Assembly: GCA_002717445.1 (NCBI GenBank)
Contig: PBDY01000027.1
Coordinates: 32,747 to 96,746, forward strand
DNA from: Gammaproteobacteria bacterium
GTDB taxonomy: Bacteria > Pseudomonadota > Gammaproteobacteria > Steroidobacterales > UBA11654
Length of the DNA: 64,000 nucleotides
Reading direction: 5' to 3'
The position numbers and the translations under genes are program-made. Under the pieces are notes generated by a model, which made no database searches, had not been told where the DNA came from, and saw nothing but the letters and a program-made list of their open reading frames with translations. Shown piece after piece: positions 7,708-24,225 of this stretch (its first letter is position 1; each line of letters begins with the position of its first letter).

Positions 7708-7933
7708 AGAATCTTTCGACATTATAATTGAAAAGAAAATGAAACTGCCATCTGGTGAGAAGGTAGTTAAAGAATTATCTCGTTTGGGTAAAAAGAAGAA
7801 CGTTAATGCTGTTATTAGTAAGAAAGGTTCGAAGTTTAACCTATATGTGGACGGTCAGATGGTTGACGGTTTCAAAGACGAGAAGTCTGCCGATAAGGCA
7901 CTAAAAGAATTTATTAAAGTTATGGGTATTTGA
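7694..7933 (+). CDS. Small basic head protein (gp68 position)
   Basis: Synteny; N-terminus MKTFKESFDIIIE resembles a capsid-targeting sequence. Confidence 0.5.
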   Translation: MKTFKESFDIIIEKKMKLPSGEKVVKELSRLGKKKNVNAVISKKGSKFNLYVDGQMVDGFKDEKSADKALKEFIKVMGI

Positions 7934-7956
7934 AGAAATTAATAAAAGGAACTAAT

Positions 7957-8643
7957 ATGAAGTTAATCGCAGAATACACAGATACAGACCTTGGTTACTC
8001 AATAACTGAAGATGCAAAGAGCGGTAAGAAGAATGTTTTTATCGAAGGAGTCTTTATGTCTGCTGAATCCAAGAACAGAAATGGAAGAATTTATTCCAAG
8101 AAGGTTCTTGAGAAAGCAATTGAGAAATATAATCAAGACCAAGTAATTACAGGTCGTGCAGTTGGTGAGTTGAATCACCCTGACGGCCCATCTATTAATT
8201 TAGATAAAGTTTCTCACAGAATTACCGAACTCAAGTGGGACGGTAACAATGTGATGGGAAAGGCACTAGTTTTGGATACCCCTATGGGTCAGGTCGTTAA
8301 AGGCTTGGTTGAGGGTGGTGTACAACTTGGAGTGTCAAGTCGTGGTATGGGAAGTTTGGAAAGTAAGAATGGAGCTAACTATGTTAAGGATGATTTCCTA
8401 CTTAACACAGTTGATATCGTTCAAGACCCGTCGGCTCAAAATGCGTTCGTTAATGGCATTTATGAGGGGACTAATTGGTCTATGGACGAAGAAGGTCATT
8501 TTATACCTTTCAAGACTGTTGAAGAAGGTGAGACTGAAATGATGGAACCAGAAGTAGTTGAAGAAGAACCTATTGTCGAAGAAATTGTCGATAATAGTAA
8601 ATCTGAAATTGCAGGATTCGAACATTTCCTCTCTAAACTATAA
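7957..8643 (+). CDS. gp21: Prohead core protease
   Basis: MKLIAE start, NRNGRIY, GELNHP, LGVSSRGMGS, DIVQDPSA. Confidence 0.95.
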   Translation: MKLIAEYTDTDLGYSITEDAKSGKKNVFIEGVFMSAESKNRNGRIYSKKVLEKAIEKYNQDQVITGRAVGELNHPDGPSINLDKVSHRITELKWDGNNVMGKALVLDTPMGQVVKGLVEGGVQLGVSSRGMGSLESKNGANYVKDDFLLNTVDIVQDPSAQNAFVNGIYEGTNWSMDEEGHFIPFKTVEEGETEMMEPEVVEEEPIVEEIVDNSKSEIAGFEHFLSKL

Positions 8644-16767: not shown

Positions 16768-17340
16768 ATGCCTGAAAAGATTAAACCAAGAGATAAACCA
16801 CATTATGTAAATAATAGAGATTTTAGTAATGCCGTTGTCGATTATTGTAAACATTGTATTACTGAGGACGAGTCTGGTAATGAAAGACCAGTAGTAACTG
16901 ATTATATCGCAACGTGTTTTATGAAGATATGTGAAGGATTATCACACAAATCTAATTTCGTTAGATATACATATCGAGATGAAATGGTTATGGACGGAGT
17001 AGAGAATTGCCTTCGTGCGATACATAACTATAACATTGAAACAACTACTCGTACTGGTAAACCTAATGCTTTTGCATATTTCACACAGATAGCGTATTTC
17101 GCTTTCATTAGACGAATCACTAAAGAAAAGAAACAACAAGATATTAAGTTTCATTTCTTAGAACAAGCAGATATCGAATCCTTTATTACTTCAACAGATA
17201 CTAGTAATCCTATTGACCAAGCATATGTTGATGTGTTAAGGAATAAGATTGCATCAATCAAAAAGAAAGATGATGCTATTAAAGAGTTCGGTAAAGTTGT
17301 TAAAGAGAAGAAAGCAAAAGGAGTCGAATTGCATACATGA
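16768..17340 (+). CDS. gp55: Late transcription sigma factor
   Basis: HYVNNRDF, YTYRDEMVMDGVENC, NAFAYFTQIAYFAFIRRI. Confidence 0.95.
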   Translation: MPEKIKPRDKPHYVNNRDFSNAVVDYCKHCITEDESGNERPVVTDYIATCFMKICEGLSHKSNFVRYTYRDEMVMDGVENCLRAIHNYNIETTTRTGKPNAFAYFTQIAYFAFIRRITKEKKQQDIKFHFLEQADIESFITSTDTSNPIDQAYVDVLRNKIASIKKKDDAIKEFGKVVKEKKAKGVELHT

Positions 17341-18155
17341 TGAAATTCCACGATAATTATTTCTGGTGGACTTACACAGATATAATTGATACATTGGTCT
17401 TTGCACATATGTTAGTAGAGAAATTTCAATGCAATGCAACGTTAGAATCGGTACAACCTAGTAGTGTAAATAACAATGCAAATGAATTTGAAACTCATTT
17501 AGACCAAATAAACTTCGTATATGATTATATGAATCTTAAAGAAAGGGGTGTAGACCTCAAGATTGATATAATGGATAGCAAGTTACATAACAAAATCTGT
17601 GCAAATAAGTCAATAGACCACGAAGGTAATTCCGTGGGTAGACTCTTTTGGCCTCATAATATTAATCACGTTAAGAACCACAAGATAGCAATCTTTAGTG
17701 GGGAAGATAACCGTAGTAAGTTTAGTGATAACCTTGATGCACACGGTAAAGATAAGAATTGGAAGAATCCTATGTATGGTAATTGGGATATAGTGAGAGA
17801 AGATTTGACAAGACAAGGATATGAGTTAGTTGAAATCAGTTATAAGGATAAGATATCTGACACGATAGAGAAAGTACAAGATTGTTATGCGTGTGTGGGA
17901 TACTTTGGTGCAATAAACAGCATTGCATTATTAACAAACAAACCCCTTATTCTTATATACCAATCTCCGGGAAATGATGGATATACTAGATTGTGTAACA
18001 GGGAGATTATTAATATTAGTTCACCAGACGAATACAGTTTATTACTACATAACTCAAAACACCAATGGCACGAGTTAATAAGGAACTCACACAAAATGTG
18101 GGCGAAAGGTTATCATAATTATCAGGGATATAAATTAGGAACTAAATCGGTATGA
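17337..18155 (+). CDS. Hypothetical protein, GT-B/GT9-like C-terminal motif (paralog 1)
   Basis: WKNP...GYELVEISY...CVGYFGAINSIALLTNKPLI; similar to the 18152 and 62125 ORFs. Confidence 0.45.
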   Translation: MMKFHDNYFWWTYTDIIDTLVFAHMLVEKFQCNATLESVQPSSVNNNANEFETHLDQINFVYDYMNLKERGVDLKIDIMDSKLHNKICANKSIDHEGNSVGRLFWPHNINHVKNHKIAIFSGEDNRSKFSDNLDAHGKDKNWKNPMYGNWDIVREDLTRQGYELVEISYKDKISDTIEKVQDCYACVGYFGAINSIALLTNKPLILIYQSPGNDGYTRLCNREIINISSPDEYSLLLHNSKHQWHELIRNSHKMWAKGYHNYQGYKLGTKSV

Positions 18156-18994
18156 TGACACTAGTAGATAATTATAATTGGAAAGCATATGCAAATACCA
18201 TTTGTAAATTCGTCTTTGCGAATATGTTAATGGAAAGATATCAATGTCCAGCAGTATTAAAGTCTGTACAAGATGTTGGTATAAACAAACAAGCAAATCA
18301 ATACGAGACTTATTATGACCAAATAATGTTCTTCTATGATTATATGGAAATGAAGGAAAGGGGATTAACCCTTGAAGTGAGAAAGATTGGAACAAGAGAA
18401 CACACAAGAACGTGTAACAATCAACGAATAGATACGTGGACTAATGACCAAGCAATAGGTAGACTTTTCTGGCCTGGCCTAAACCAGTGTACTCCGATTG
18501 GTTCACCTAATAAGATTGCAGTATGTACTGGGGAAGATAATATTCAGAAATATTTTTCCACCACCAATAGTTATAATTGGAGTGCCAATATTGATGATAT
18601 TACACCTACATGGCGAAATCCTATGTATGGTGAATGGGATTTAGTCAAAGAAGATTTAGAATCACAGGGGTTCGAAGTAGTTAATATCTCTTATAGAGAG
18701 AGATTATCTGACACTATAAATAAATTAGAAGATTGTTCTTCTATTATAGGATATTATGGTGTAACTCAGTTCCTTGCATTATTGATGAACTTACCACTCA
18801 TATCTGTTTATGATAATAGTAAAAATGACAGTTATTCTAGAGTATGTAATAGGGTTATTATAAACGATTATAAGAAACCTAAACTCACAGCGACAGCGCC
18901 CCACGATTTCAAAGAGTTGATAAGGGAATCAAAAAAGAAATGGGAGTTAGGTAAGAAACGTTATGGTTTATTTAAAGAGGGGATACAATATTGA
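18152..18994 (+). CDS. Hypothetical protein, GT-B/GT9-like C-terminal motif (paralog 2)
   Basis: Shares FAxML.E..QC.A.L.SVQ, GRLFWP, GEDN and W.NPMYG.WD with the 17337 ORF. Confidence 0.45.
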   Translation: MMTLVDNYNWKAYANTICKFVFANMLMERYQCPAVLKSVQDVGINKQANQYETYYDQIMFFYDYMEMKERGLTLEVRKIGTREHTRTCNNQRIDTWTNDQAIGRLFWPGLNQCTPIGSPNKIAVCTGEDNIQKYFSTTNSYNWSANIDDITPTWRNPMYGEWDLVKEDLESQGFEVVNISYRERLSDTINKLEDCSSIIGYYGVTQFLALLMNLPLISVYDNSKNDSYSRVCNRVIINDYKKPKLTATAPHDFKELIRESKKKWELGKKRYGLFKEGIQY

Positions 18995-19946: not shown

Positions 19947-19954
19947 TATAAATA
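19947..19954 (+). promoter_or_regulatory. Late promoter TATAAATA (membrane/transport operon)
   Basis: Exact intergenic motif upstream of 20036. Confidence 0.7.
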
Positions 19955-20035
19955 TAAGTTATATACTATGTTGAAGTGCATAGTGGCGCTGGGTGGCTCC
20001 ACCGACCAGCACCTAAATCTAAAAGCGGGGAAACA

Positions 20036-20935
20036 ATGTTTAAACAATTCTTTGAGGAGACAAAATGGCTCTTAATAATCGTAACCACAGTAATAATAAT
20101 CTTACTGGGAAACGTAGCATATTTTGTATGGGAAGATGGCAAGCTCGCTAGAGAGAATGAAGGTATTCCCGAATGGTTATGGAATCCAGAGGTAAGAGAA
20201 CTAGATGTAGTACTTAAAGGACTGGAGTTTAAACAACTAAAAGAAAATCTATACAGTCTGACAGGAACAGTTCGACAAGACGACTGCGAGAAAATCGTTC
20301 CTCTACTCCCTATTGATAAACCATTTTCAGTAATATTGGAATCGCCTGGCGGAAGTCTTTTTGATGGTGGTTGTATTGCTGCTCATTTCAAACTTAGAGA
20401 TGTTATCACAGTTGTTAGGGATACTCCTGTCTTAGATGAAGATGGTAATATATTGTATCAGCCTGGACTTATACCTATGGCAGATAAGAATGATGAAGGC
20501 GAGGGATATACAATATGTGCATCATCTTGTTCTTTAATATTCCTTGGTGGTGATTTAAGATATCTTATAGGTAATGTCTTTTTAGGTATTCACGCACCAC
20601 ATACACCCGAAGAAGTAATAAATACTATAGGAAAACGTGCATTAGAATCTGATGCATATAGAACAGCAGCCTCATTACAGTTGTTGTTAGAAAAACTTGG
20701 AGTAACCGACCCTAATTTGAGGTTGTTGTTTATTCAAGTACCAGCGGCTTCTATGTACTGGTTGACTCCAAGAGATTTTGAATCTCAACCAACATTAATT
20801 ACATTAGCAACGCACTATAAGAACTTCTGGGGATTTAACTTTGAAAATGAGTTCATGGATGTCATAGACTCCAATGAGGACAGAAAGATAATAATGGAAT
20901 CTGAACCACCACCAACTAAACCGGGGTTAAAATAA
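20036..20935 (+). CDS. Membrane-anchored ClpP/crotonase-like (COG3904-type) protein
   Basis: N-terminal TM helix, ESPGG, CASSCSLIFLGG..R, GIHAP. Confidence 0.65.
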   Translation: MFKQFFEETKWLLIIVTTVIIILLGNVAYFVWEDGKLARENEGIPEWLWNPEVRELDVVLKGLEFKQLKENLYSLTGTVRQDDCEKIVPLLPIDKPFSVILESPGGSLFDGGCIAAHFKLRDVITVVRDTPVLDEDGNILYQPGLIPMADKNDEGEGYTICASSCSLIFLGGDLRYLIGNVFLGIHAPHTPEEVINTIGKRALESDAYRTAASLQLLLEKLGVTDPNLRLLFIQVPAASMYWLTPRDFESQPTLITLATHYKNFWGFNFENEFMDVIDSNEDRKIIMESEPPPTKPGLK

Positions 20936-20936
20936 T

Positions 20937-21959
20937 ATGTTAAAATCATTCTTTTGGACTAGACAAAACGCCTTTTACGCTTGGGTAATGTTATCATTAC
21001 TATTAGGTATCGCTTGGTATACTGTAGAGATACTAGTATTTTACAATGCGTGGAACAAAGAAATCTATGATGCGATTCAATCTTTACAAGAGGAAAGGTT
21101 TTGGACATTGTTCTTAGGATTTGACCTCAGTAGGATAACAGAATTTGTAATGCTTAAGGAAGATACTATGCCATCATTCCTTGAGATTATAACTTTATAT
21201 ACACCTATAGCAGTATATGCCACTTGGCAGACACAAAGGTATTGTTTCAAATGGAGAGAAGCGAATACGCATCACTACGCAAGAAGGTGGGAAAAATCAC
21301 CAGCAAAGATTGAAGGTGGTTCTCAACGTATCCAAGAAGACCTTATGATATTTGGTAAGACACTACAGAGTTTATTTTCAGGGTTCTTCTCAGCAATCTT
21401 AGTATTGTTTGCGTTTCTTCCTATACTTTGGGAATTATCAGAAGGATTACCTGTTTGGAATGGTAAGATAATTCCGGGATTTCTTGTATGGGTTGCATTA
21501 GGTGTTTCAATTGGTGGTACTTTAATATCTCTTATACTGGGTTGGAAACTACCCAAACTTGAATATAATAATCAGGTAGTAGAAGCGAAGTTTAGAAAAC
21601 AACTCGTATTCTCTGAGGACGATTTCAAGGCACGAGCAACTGATGTGTTGTTCCCAATGTTTAGTGCAGTTAAGAGAAACTATTATCGACTCTTTAATTG
21701 GTATATGGGATTTGGAGTATGGCAAACAGCATTCGGTCTGGCAGTAGGTAACTTAGCATTAGTAGTATTAGCGCCTGCATACTTTGACCAACTAATTACA
21801 CTTGGAGTATTATTCCAAGTACTCAACGCCTTTGGGCGAGTAGAATCGTCTATGGGATATTTTATAGACCGTTGGACTACAATCGTAGACTTCTTATCGG
21901 TTATTCGTCGTATCCGTGAATTTAACAAAGCTTTGGACGAGGCAGAACAGAAGGGATAA
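20937..21959 (+). CDS. sbmA: SbmA/BacA-family peptide transporter
   Basis: MLKSFF start, FKWREA, IEGGSQRIQED, LPKLEYNNQVVEAKFRKQLVFSED, FSAVKRNYYRL, WTTIVD all track E. coli SbmA motifs. Confidence 0.9.
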   Translation: MLKSFFWTRQNAFYAWVMLSLLLGIAWYTVEILVFYNAWNKEIYDAIQSLQEERFWTLFLGFDLSRITEFVMLKEDTMPSFLEIITLYTPIAVYATWQTQRYCFKWREANTHHYARRWEKSPAKIEGGSQRIQEDLMIFGKTLQSLFSGFFSAILVLFAFLPILWELSEGLPVWNGKIIPGFLVWVALGVSIGGTLISLILGWKLPKLEYNNQVVEAKFRKQLVFSEDDFKARATDVLFPMFSAVKRNYYRLFNWYMGFGVWQTAFGLAVGNLALVVLAPAYFDQLITLGVLFQVLNAFGRVESSMGYFIDRWTTIVDFLSVIRRIREFNKALDEAEQKG

Positions 21960-21960
21960 T

Positions 21961-22422
21961 ATGAATAAAGTTTTACAAAGATGGTATCTTTTTGTAATGG
22001 TCTATCTCTGTGGTGTATATGCTTTATACACTAACGGAATATTCGTAGACATATATGAGAATGATGTTACCAAACTAACCTTTGTTATATATGGATTGTT
22101 TATACTTTCCACAGGTATTTTGGGGTGGGTGTCGCATAAGTGCAAACTTGGCCCAAAGAAATTTAAACACAATAAGTTCACAGATATGTGTTGGTTTATG
22201 AGTGATGCAATGATGACACTCGGACTGATAGGTACGGTTGCAGGTATGATATTCCTATTCGGAATGATATTCGGTAATATCGACCCAAGTGTACCAGAGG
22301 ATTTGAAAAATGCATTAGGTCATATGGCAACTGGATTGTCTACTGCAATGTATACAACGATAGTAGGTATGGTGTGTTCTTTACTGACTAGGGTTCAGTT
22401 AATGAATATCGAATATGGATAA
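21961..22422 (+). CDS. MotA/TolQ/ExbB-family proton channel subunit
   Basis: TLGLIGTVAGMI...GLSTAMYTTIVG TM-pair signature. Confidence 0.8.
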   Translation: MNKVLQRWYLFVMVYLCGVYALYTNGIFVDIYENDVTKLTFVIYGLFILSTGILGWVSHKCKLGPKKFKHNKFTDMCWFMSDAMMTLGLIGTVAGMIFLFGMIFGNIDPSVPEDLKNALGHMATGLSTAMYTTIVGMVCSLLTRVQLMNIEYG

Positions 22423-23089
22423 CAAGACAAGATTTAAAAGTCTGATTAGTTTCTTAGACCTGTTGTGGATTCTTCTTGCAGGTTTTGGTGCAATGTTTAT
22501 TATTGCATTTCTTCTCATACAACCACCAGCGAAACATGCCGATATTATTAAGAAGGCAGAGTATATGATTATCCTAGAATGGGATAAGAAATCTTCTGAT
22601 GATATTGATTTGTGGGTGATGAATCCAAAAGGGGGAGTAGTATCCTTTAGGGGTAAGAGTATGGGGTATATGAACTTAGAGAAAGATGACCTTGGTTCTA
22701 AGAATGATAAAGTTATAGATGAATATGGTGTTGCACACGTTCTCGAAATAAATAGAGAAGTAGTTACCCTTAGAGGTGTTATGAAAGGAGAATATAAAGT
22801 TATGGTACACGTTTATAATAGATATCCGGTTTCGGAAACTCCCGAATGGTTTACAATAGAAATTGTAAAGATAAATCCATATAAACAAGTGTATTTGTCA
22901 ACAGGTACATATACATTCAGAGGACAAGAACATTCTGTTGTTAGATTTACCGTAGATGCAGATGCGAATTTCAAAGGGTTCAACTCTTTAAATACTAACT
23001 TCATCAACGCTAGTAGGACATCACCAGAAGAAAGAGCAGAAGATGTAATAACTAATCAAGGCGCTCAAGGTTATACAGGAGATTACTAA
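22415..23089 (+). CDS. ExbD/MotB-like single-TM partner with a periplasmic beta domain
   Basis: N-terminal SFLDLL (TM Asp) followed by a hydrophobic helix; LEWD...DIDLWV.NP domain. Confidence 0.55.
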   Translation: MDNKTRFKSLISFLDLLWILLAGFGAMFIIAFLLIQPPAKHADIIKKAEYMIILEWDKKSSDDIDLWVMNPKGGVVSFRGKSMGYMNLEKDDLGSKNDKVIDEYGVAHVLEINREVVTLRGVMKGEYKVMVHVYNRYPVSETPEWFTIEIVKINPYKQVYLSTGTYTFRGQEHSVVRFTVDADANFKGFNSLNTNFINASRTSPEERAEDVITNQGAQGYTGDY

Positions 23090-23553
23090 TGGATATTGAA
23101 AATTCAATCGCACTAGTTTCTTTATCAATCTTTCTATTAATGACATTCTCATTGATAGTGATGATTTGGTATGGTCGTTCTAACAAACTGATATACTTAG
23201 TGATACCTCTGGTTCTTTGGTTAAGTGTATCAACTTATAGTACTATACAAGGATTACTTGGATATCCTGTACTAGCAAAAGATATACCCGAAGGAAACAT
23301 ATATCTATCTCACACAGTAGGAAAAGACCAAGAATGGTTATACTTCTGGTTAATTGATATAAATACATATGTACCTAAAGCTTATAAGATAGTGTACACA
23401 GAGGAAGGTGAAAAGTTACTTGCAGAAGCGAAAGAGAAATCAGGTCTTGGTAATCCTCAAGGATTGAAACTTCAACTAGGAAGTAGTGAACAAGAAACTG
23501 AAAAACAAATAACAATATACAATTTTAATAAACTAGAAGGAATAATCAAATGA
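23089..23553 (+). CDS. Two-TM membrane protein, hypothetical
   Basis: Two N-terminal hydrophobic helices then LGYP; translationally coupled to its neighbours. Confidence 0.6.
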   Translation: MDIENSIALVSLSIFLLMTFSLIVMIWYGRSNKLIYLVIPLVLWLSVSTYSTIQGLLGYPVLAKDIPEGNIYLSHTVGKDQEWLYFWLIDINTYVPKAYKIVYTEEGEKLLAEAKEKSGLGNPQGLKLQLGSSEQETEKQITIYNFNKLEGIIK

Positions 23554-24200
23554 GTAAAAAACCGTCAAGAATGGATATCATAGGACAGAACGGAAATGAT
23601 GGCGACCACTATGACCAAGTAGATACAGCGCCACCACCGCCGCCACCAGGAATGGATACAGTCATTCCTAAATTGGACTTGATGAAAAAGAACATCAACT
23701 TCTTTATGGGTGATGTTACAATGCAATCAATGGAACCAATATGTGAGTGGATTATTTCTGCAAACCTATCTGATACTCCCCCAAAGGAATTGACACTAGT
23801 TGTTTGTTCAAGAGGTGGTGACCTCAATGCTTGTTTCGCCCTCGTAGATTGTATGAGGGGTTCTAAGATACCTATCCGAACCATTGGTTTGGGTATGATT
23901 GCATCTTGTGGACTCTTAATGTTTATCTCAGGTACGAAAGGTCGTAGAGTACTTACACCAAATACTGCAATACTATCACATCAATACTCTTGGGGTTCAG
24001 TTGGTAAGGAACACGAACTCTTTGCAAGGGTTAAGGAAATGGAATTAACTACTCATAGACTACTGAGTCATTATAAGAAGTGTACTGGATTAAATGAGAA
24101 GAAAATCAGAGAACATTTACTACCACCACATGATGTGTGGTTGGGTGCTGACCAAGCATTAAAATTAAAACTATGTGATAAGATATCGGATATTACTTGA
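23550..24200 (+). CDS. clpP: ClpP-like protease
   Basis: SRGGD, TIGLGMIASCG (catalytic Ser), ILSHQ (His), DVWL (Asp). Confidence 0.85.
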   Translation: MSKKPSRMDIIGQNGNDGDHYDQVDTAPPPPPPGMDTVIPKLDLMKKNINFFMGDVTMQSMEPICEWIISANLSDTPPKELTLVVCSRGGDLNACFALVDCMRGSKIPIRTIGLGMIASCGLLMFISGTKGRRVLTPNTAILSHQYSWGSVGKEHELFARVKEMELTTHRLLSHYKKCTGLNEKKIREHLLPPHDVWLGADQALKLKLCDKISDIT

Positions 24201-24225
24201 CTTTTAAACTCATATAGAGTATAAT
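24197..24225 (+). promoter_or_regulatory. Sigma70-type promoter, leaderless geometry
   Basis: TTGACT-17-TATAAT, with the ATG 7 nt downstream. Confidence 0.8.

Follow-up and report, generated by a model that had tools for sequence, protein, structure and literature searches.

An unnamed three-protein relative of 5:2 ion motors, with a phage-built extension, on a T4-like phage contig

The present study concerns six genes carried by a 64,000-nucleotide stretch of DNA (hereafter the window) from contig PBDY01000027.1 of the Gammaproteobacteria bacterium assembly GCA_002717445.1. Three of them, which we call A, B and C, constitute an unnamed three-protein relative of the 5:2 ion motors, with a phage-built extension made up of ORF1 (open reading frame 1, encoding a ClpP-like protein), a gene for an SbmA-type transporter and a gene for a ClpP-family protease. 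The six genes fall into the units A-B-C and ORF1-SbmA, which are separable, with ClpP as an optional addition. For the operon as a whole, we tentatively favor, at somewhat less than an even chance, a phage-borne system in which ion flow powers the digestion of envelope proteins and the peptides are salvaged.

An earlier note on this DNA had described six abutting or overlapping ORFs behind a late-promoter motif, and this was borne out: the ORFs, the motif and the family calls are real. All six ORFs lie on the forward strand, are joined by 1-nt gaps or overlaps of 1 to 8 nt, and are translationally coupled. Also supported was the idea that the module is phage-borne, sits in the membrane and has an ion-motor core of MotA type.

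Gene A (21961..22422) encodes a minimal MotA/TolQ/ExbB-family subunit of 153 amino acids (aa), which matches PF01618 (MotA_ExbB) at E 7.7e-8 and 32.6 bits (cut-off 22.9) and whose profile, among solved structures, comes closest to MotA (8gqy, E 0.004, and 6ykm). It likely has four helices, three of them seen in a hydropathy scan and the fourth deduced from the MotA alignment, with some 25 residues separating helices 2 and 3, and the residues invariant in 68 sequences (G88, G91, T92, G95, T132, T133 and G136) occupy the last two. The cytoplasmic domain has been lost, and no viral copy among the 122 has a matched length above 166 aa; among chromosomal copies from the source genome's class, 33 of 36 exceed 190 aa and retain the cytoplasmic insert.

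Gene B (22415..23089) encodes 224 aa, with a single helix bearing a stator-type Asp15, kept in 220 of 222 aligned non-gap rows, followed by a predicted TerD-like beta-sandwich ectodomain. The AlphaFold (AF2) model (predicted local distance difference test, pLDDT, 85) consists of one helix and an all-beta ectodomain, and its best structural matches are TerD (2qz7, Z 9.0, root-mean-square deviation 4.2 over 131 residues; the next, 8.7), with a Foldseek match to TerD at E 2.5e-4. These scores are moderate and a likeness of fold does not show function; the TerD-like fold stands as a prediction, and Ca2+ binding by the ectodomain, in which D63, D65, D91, D92 and D98 are invariant, as only a lead. 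ExbD/TolR and OmpA-like folds were not among the structural matches listed, which is no formal exclusion. The B profile met only chance matches among PDB sequences, and no significant Pfam, NCBIfam or PADLOC family was found, the sole PHROG match being weak (E 0.0011) and of unknown function. Of the ExbB/ExbD-like pair proposed earlier, the family of A and the Asp of B (in SFLDLL) hold, but B appears ExbD-like in that Asp only. Among variants, at loci L399 and L400, each of which has two C genes, Ala occupies the Asp column and Asp stands four residues earlier; L420 and L421 likewise have two C genes; in L162 (719-1684) the B and C profiles match one 322-aa stop-to-stop frame, possibly a fusion or an artefact.

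Gene C (23089..23553), the third member of the trio, encodes 154 aa that are predicted to form a helical hairpin, whose loop is basic and cytoplasmic, and a beta domain of about 95 aa. In 69 of 71 sequences the loop carries more positive charge than the N-terminus, and the domain is therefore predicted to face the periplasm. No significant Pfam, NCBIfam, PADLOC or PHROG family was found for C; fold searches returned only generic helical-hairpin matches (best Z 7.8, residues 1-60), with no Foldseek match at E<=0.001, and a search for long C fusions (413-2000 aa) found none, which is weak evidence. Nor was C seen joined to a trypsin-like domain at the loci of this study. A complex prediction with two copies of A, B(1-198) and C gave C as a partner a score of 0.01 and a mark of 0.32, which speaks neither for nor against binding.

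The trio fits the 5:2 motor superfamily in having a PF01618 subunit and an adjacent single-helix partner with a conserved transmembrane Asp. With ExbB-ExbD-TonB and TolQ-TolR-TolA it shares a PF01618 subunit with Gly/Thr helices, a single-helix partner with Asp and a third membrane protein in the operon. It differs from them in that the ectodomain of B is predicted to be all-beta with TerD as best match, A is probably a four-helix protein that lacks the cytoplasmic domain in phages, and the module is phage-borne. Moreover, the third Ton/Tol subunit is a single-pass, periplasm-spanning transducer, for which the excerpts of PMC12204202 give an SHLS motif with a His in the helix, whereas C has two helices in a hairpin, a short ectodomain of about 95 aa and no conserved His in its helices. 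The flagellar stators MotA-MotB and PomA-PomB provide the closest solved structures for A and share its likely four-helix topology; they are defined, in the excerpts of PMC12505986, by a torque-generating cytoplasmic domain and an OmpA-family domain. A flagellar stator was rejected, as A, at 153 aa, has no expanded cytoplasmic domain and B has no OmpA-family match.

A Zorya-like envelope sensor, also raised by the earlier note, fails the defining tests of that system. Both are found in a phage-conflict setting and A weakly matches the membrane region of ZorA (E 3e-7 to 6e-6), but this region alone aligns with the ZorA models (413-648 positions), at 20-25 bits against cut-offs of 500 and 700. 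Furthermore, the module resides on a phage and not on a host, A lacks the long tail, the other five proteins have no PADLOC match at E<=0.05, and nothing matches ZorB or ZorC/D/E; Zorya was accordingly rejected. In the literature searched, whose scope left out supplements and most subscription papers, we found no description of the trio, the phage SbmA or the operon. TerD is not mentioned in the motor surveys PMC12505986 and PMC12204202, whose excerpts describe no such trio, and the supplementary 'GIT' complexes of the former may include it.

The trio is conserved in both viruses and bacteria. Counting distinct loci with enough flanking sequence, A-B-C is intact at 202 of 205 B loci (116/118 viral and 86/87 chromosomal), A preceding B in 204 and C following it in 203. 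Relatives of B number 2,066 at E<=0.001 among 50%-identity representatives; its profile is found in 479 viral stretches, in 29 records of cultured phages (all rhizobial), in 43 of 399 other genomes of the source genome's class (probably Gammaproteobacteria, judging from the lack of GcrA in the source genome and from HflD next to one trio) and, in the class of an alphaproteobacterial isolate, in 41 of 301 genomes, and the trio is kept even in genomes of 1.1 Mb (G236, G380). On an unrooted FastTree tree of B (131 rows, dereplicated at 80% from 318), from which we claim no donor, most chromosomal copies stand apart from a broad phage radiation and a SAR116-type copy lies among the phage rows. In the SAR116-type genomes (L099-L141) the trio is of the short, phage type, and many of the contigs break off some 540 nt 5' of B, pointing to a repeat or the edge of an island.

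Other genes are occasionally seen at the trio. In marine phage contigs, aprB, for the adenylylsulfate (APS) reductase beta subunit, stands just after it (L025, 5487-5996; the cluster also in L037 and L048), and a short gene of the Na+/Pi-cotransporter family (PF02690) lies directly 3' of C in L071, L075 and L078 (8127-8609). In rhizobial temperate phages, homing endonuclease-like genes are inserted within the trio (L312, 4252-4989; L313, 4225-4983; L314, 5535-6077), two of them annotated as such and that of L312 recognized by likeness to L313.

The second unit begins with ORF1 (20036..20935), whose 299-aa product has an anchor helix at residues 13-31 and is predicted to be a periplasmic, serine-peptidase-like protein of ClpP fold. 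We preferred the ATG at 20036 because 8 of 12 aligned relatives start at the same 'MFK/MFR' position, and rejected the GTG at 19976 on the same ground. The transmembrane anchor and the SPGG, CASSC and GIH motifs named in the earlier note are present, and hhalign aligned the ORF1 profile to that of ClpP (68%, E 4.7e-5), placing Ser163 and His186 on Ser119 and His144 of ClpP; against the ClpP structure 6cfd, E was 0.77. All 53 relatives keep S163, H186 and four Cys, and no significant Pfam, NCBIfam, PADLOC or PHROG family was found. The SPGG, CASxC and GxH motifs are shared with membrane-anchored ClpP-fold proteins in 6 of 301 alphaproteobacterial genomes, whereas the four invariant Cys, the anchor and the absence of Asp at the ClpP position set ORF1 apart from ClpP itself.

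At 52 of 53 distinct viral loci the gene immediately 3' of ORF1 encodes SbmA. The window copy, an SbmA/BacA (SLiPT) transporter of 340 aa (20937..21959), matches PF05992 (SbmA_BacA) at E 4e-76 with 257 bits over residues 12-333, and phmmer aligns it to residues 82-394 of 7p34 at E 6e-51. According to excerpts of PMC8442886 and PMC13316013, SbmA is a proton-coupled peptide importer (the former) with a glutamate ladder of E193, E203, E269, E276, E287 and E378 (the latter), and E203 is essential in E. coli and likely the first proton site, its protonation favoring the outward-open state (both). The phage copy has the type IV ABC-like membrane domain of SLiPT proteins without a nucleotide-binding domain and keeps the equivalents of E193, E269, E276 and E287 as well as R190, R280, K281, D288, Y116 and Y368. 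It differs from E. coli SbmA and S. meliloti BacA in lacking the transmembrane segment TM0, in having Gln144 for Glu203 and Asp318 for Glu378, and in being paired with a peptidase-like gene. The importer described earlier is thus of the SbmA family, but not of the standard proton-driven type.

This substitution goes with ORF1. Among 46 ORF1-linked SbmA proteins, position 203 is Gln in 41, Asn in one and Glu in four (42 without Glu), and it is Glu in all 14 unlinked viral copies (the window's own truncated locus left out). The linked copies are close kin, so that the loss of Glu203 may be one event; their members of alignment A5 are 69-95% conserved. A transporter with Gln203 could be a pre-primed importer, an uncoupled one, or a protein of different activity. 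Short SbmA proteins (329-343 aa) are likewise present in bacteria, and a convincing cultured-phage SbmA was not found, the three matches being a 7.5-kb record without annotation and two contigs of 254 kb labelled 'Acinetobacter phage'.

The last gene (23550..24200) encodes a ClpP-family protease of 216 aa, matching PF00574 (CLP_protease) at E 2.4e-25 and 89.9 bits (cut-off 20.2) and falling below every NCBIfam ClpP cut-off. The Ser/His/Asp motifs read earlier are in the sequence: in 13 sequences S119 and H144 are invariant and D195, which from the ClpP motif spacing we take to be the catalytic Asp, is near-invariant. A role as head protease was rejected as probably wrong, the phage having a separate gp21-type head protease at 7930-8643.

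Across many phages the genes of the supposed six-gene module do co-occur, but the conserved unit is the trio and not the six. Among 40 distinct wide-flank ORF1 loci, 26 hold the trio and 17 ClpP. The orders seen are ORF1-SbmA-A-B-C-ClpP (9), A-B-C-ORF1-SbmA (7), ClpP..A-B-C..ORF1-SbmA (5), ORF1-SbmA-A-B-C (2) and ClpP-ORF1-SbmA-A-B-C (2), with one locus in which the trio is on the opposite strand about 5 kb off. The full set is found in different types of phage, namely T4-like (the window), podovirus-type with terminase, portal and capsid neighbors (L196/L018) and polA-type (L237), and on the B tree the label ORF1+SbmA needs seven changes, six of them forced by starred branches. In addition, a second, full-ladder type of SbmA (33-36% identical) stands right after A-B-C in L295, L299, L303, L304, L308 and L309, that is, in 6 of the 20 loci of this distant type examined.

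The trio is also joined repeatedly to exported proteases of unrelated folds. In all 23 viral loci resembling Rhizobium phage 16-3 (L315-L337), which form one clade on the B tree, an exported trypsin-like protease unrelated in fold to ORF1 directly precedes A, and the same arrangement is present in the cultured phages 16-3, NV1.1.1, TM3_3_14B and X2_25; in N3_13, L339 and L349 such a protease lies a few genes downstream. A trypsin/PDZ protease is near the trio in L054, L055 and L057 (after SbmA) and in L060. Pooled, 49 of 84 viral loci have an exported protease, a figure inflated by the targeted scans and not to be read as a rate.

Periplasmic hydrolysis is what the phage partners share (proteases of three types, the lysozyme fused to C and an M15 peptidase, the last two described below), and marine phages add a peptide importer and a cytoplasmic protease; we therefore favor, in the tentative terms given above, envelope proteolysis with salvage. 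In this scheme A and B would form a stripped-down 5:2 motor through which ions flow, with C as a predicted periplasm-facing third subunit. The membrane-anchored peptidase ORF1 would cut envelope proteins exposed by the motor, the altered SbmA would carry the resulting peptides inward, and ClpP would finish them in the cytoplasm. The phage might thereby gain amino acids in nutrient-poor water, the removal of envelope proteins being a side effect. Digestion and recycling of envelope proteins by a phage was not found described in the literature searched.

Several observations weigh against this salvage scheme, and the peptide foraging put forward by the earlier note, though still the best single reading, meets the difficulty that a protease or SbmA is not found near most phage trios. 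An unbiased scan around the top 80 B matches found ORF1 nearby at 15, SbmA at 19 and ClpP at 13; of its 35 distinct wide-flank phage trios, 22 had no ORF1, SbmA, ClpP or trypsin-like gene. None of these four was found within 4.5 kb at any of 54 wide-flank chromosomal trio loci; the neighbors there include L,D-transpeptidase (YkuD)-DUF302 genes, vWA-FHA genes, clusters for pyrroloquinoline quinone (PQQ)-dependent dehydrogenases and housekeeping genes. Conversely, 14 of the wide-flank ORF1 loci have no trio nearby (13 with the pair only, one with ORF1 alone), only 5 of 47 records without an adjacent trio hold B elsewhere (most records being fragments), and B is missing from one 84%-complete record with ORF1-SbmA and from one complete record with ORF1 alone. 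The variable regions of phages do gather unrelated genes. As for the proteins, the 53 ORF1 relatives have Met or Ile at the ClpP Asp position, import is not assured with Gln at the essential Glu203, the TonB/TolA-type helix His was not found conserved in C, and a phage A without its cytoplasmic domain leaves force output unproven.

The same distribution could mean that two independent modules, an ORF1-SbmA pair for peptide scavenging and an A-B-C envelope motor, share a region and a promoter as both kinds of envelope gene are needed together. That each unit often occurs without the other, that they lie tens of kb apart in five records and that bacteria hold the trio, SbmA and ORF1-like genes at separate loci would all fit. 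Nevertheless, five different gene orders bring the two units side by side, in phage types that are unrelated, and two types of SbmA and three types of protease have each been placed beside the trio. We regard independence as unlikely.

Phage 16-3 brings another explanation into view. Its genes p036, p038, p040 and p042 comprise the same A, B and C genes (by hidden Markov model matches) and the preceding exported serine protease; it differs from the window in that this protease is trypsin-like, no SbmA or ClpP is nearby and the genes carry p-numbers only, and the paper PMC10460002 (on AP-16-3) mentions neither trypsin nor MotA. The trio and protease of 16-3 sit between immX and attP/int, and those of TM3_3_14B next to attL. 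Such positions would suit a device for exclusion or counter-defence, in which the trio and its neighboring protease remove an envelope target (a phage receptor or a host sensor), or a gated ion leak blocks a second phage, SbmA and ClpP being secondary. Temperate phages gain from exclusion, and SbmA is missing there; the loss of the cytoplasmic domain from all 122 viral A copies fits a channel, and ZorAB sets an example of a 5:2 motor employed in phage conflict (excerpts of PMC12204202). On the other hand, chromosomal trios lie in housekeeping contexts with no defence family among their neighbors (by Pfam/NCBIfam scan, PADLOC not having been applied to them) and are retained in the 1.1-Mb genomes, a late promoter in the window fits less well than early expression would, and exclusion alone leaves the high conservation of the linked SbmA unexplained. 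We consider such a device rather unlikely.

Wall enzymes also occur beside the trio. In seven loci of one lineage with the order ClpP-A-B-C (L095, L167-L172), C is fused in frame to a phage lysozyme (PF00959), and the 86 members of an Atlas cluster share this architecture; L058, L072, L079 and L085 have an M15 peptidase immediately 5' of A; in several chromosomal loci of the source genome's class a YkuD L,D-transpeptidase is encoded two genes before A; and an SLT transglycosylase is near the trio in L422. Conceivably, the trio positions or energizes peptidoglycan enzymes, either before lysis or so as to keep the infected cell intact, and SbmA recovers wall peptides. Against this, the fused lysozyme keeps an apparent start of its own and has a near-identical, stand-alone, membrane-anchored twin (L173, 88-615), so that the fusion may be a one-off; the module of the window has no wall enzyme, and the B ectodomain matched no peptidoglycan-binding family in Pfam and fold searches. 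Wall remodeling strikes us as quite improbable.

A bolder form of the salvage scheme, which we offer as a long shot, is that A-B-C represents an unnamed class of 5:2 motor, in which B has a TerD fold and the third subunit is a hairpin, feeding force to periplasmic hydrolases, and that marine phages have built on it an envelope-cannibalizing pathway in which the motor would extract proteins, ORF1 would cut them and SbmA, having given up its first proton site (Glu203 to Gln), would import the products, possibly driven by the motor. If true, this would be an energy-coupled periplasmic unfoldase-protease, a counterpart of ClpXP run on ion flux and not on ATP.

On chromosomes, two settings of the trio deserve a record of their own. 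YkuD and/or DUF302 genes, then A-B-C and often vWA/FHA genes, are found in L385, L386, L390, L398, L400 and L401, an order that recurs across families of the source genome's class. In L384, L388, L389, L396, L420 and L087-L096, clusters for PQQ-dependent alcohol dehydrogenase with PedF, a SoxYZ-like carrier, a CXXCW protein and a PQQ ABC transporter contain or adjoin a paralogous trio, an arrangement that hints at a cellular role in periplasmic quinoprotein or metal handling.

With regard to expression, the T4-type late promoter consensus TATAAATA lies at 19947..19954 on the forward strand, where its use is presumed. The 106-kb contig holds 28 copies on the forward strand and one on the reverse, with 13.8 expected per strand from base shuffles, and many stand just 5' of ORF starts; the strand bias and this placement indicate that the motif behaves here like a real T4-type late promoter, and late timing of the module is plausible in this phage. 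The label 'late' may not extend to relatives in general: the motif is exact in only 6 of 48 distinct ORF1 upstream regions (four that follow C or ClpP left out) and 14 of 79 A upstream regions, with many near-matches. It is also found 5' of ORF1 in L001, L004, L174, L008, L012 and L197. A second forward copy of TATAAATA inside C (23358..23365), 192 nt 5' of ClpP, is a possible internal late promoter. The next unit probably begins at a sigma70-like site (24197-24225). For this stretch the listing gave no RNA holder, which has no bearing on expression.

Between the promoter and ORF1 lies a leader motif (19987..20031, forward strand), a bulged hairpin followed by an A-run and a G-rich tail that overlaps the ribosome-binding site. 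Its exact pattern recurs in five other viral contigs (e.g., L001, 4515-4548, and L012, 1013-1056), with a compensatory pair change of the outer stem in L012; the z-score of the fold is only -0.72 and no real Rfam family was found for it. Another short leader 5' of ORF1, a possible H-type pseudoknot, was noticed as four distinct sequences (L009, 4606; L011, 4580; L013, 4495; L014, 4567) with no Rfam match at gathering score.

The contig itself (C28 of our numbering) is T4-like and belongs to a 1.5-Mb bacterial assembly, in which its G+C content, 36.3%, is the lowest (37.7-44.1% in the other 30 contigs); it is possibly mis-binned or derived from an infected cell. No clear second copy of the six genes was found on the other contigs (two weak A matches only) and B was not found in 18 genomes of the same family, and therefore the six genes are the phage's; that the trio belongs to the host of the bin was rejected on the same absence and on the low G+C. 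The module is flanked by the late sigma factor gp55 (16768) upstream and gp47 (24948) downstream; a UDP-glucose dehydrogenase also lies on the upstream side and a sugar epimerase on the downstream side. Adjoining the dehydrogenase, two tandem ORFs (17337-18155 and 18152-18994; 272 and 280 aa) that look paralogous by eye and have no Pfam or PHROG match are possibly sugar-modifying enzymes.

The 5:2 motors known for flagella, TonB-dependent uptake, Tol-Pal and Zorya are host machines (excerpts of PMC12505986 and PMC12204202). Here, an unnamed trio of this kind occurs in about 11-14% of the sampled genomes of two bacterial classes and in the 479 viral stretches, and its presence in the classic phage 16-3 makes it testable in a cultured phage-host pair. 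The pairing with exported proteases and with two types of SbmA furnishes a first hypothesis for the job of this orphan motor; it also offers an ecological handle on the natural cargo of SbmA and, with the Glu203-to-Gln change, a natural variant for probing energy coupling in SLiPT transporters. Should salvage prove true, it would mean that phages use the periplasm of their hosts as a nutrient pool while infecting.

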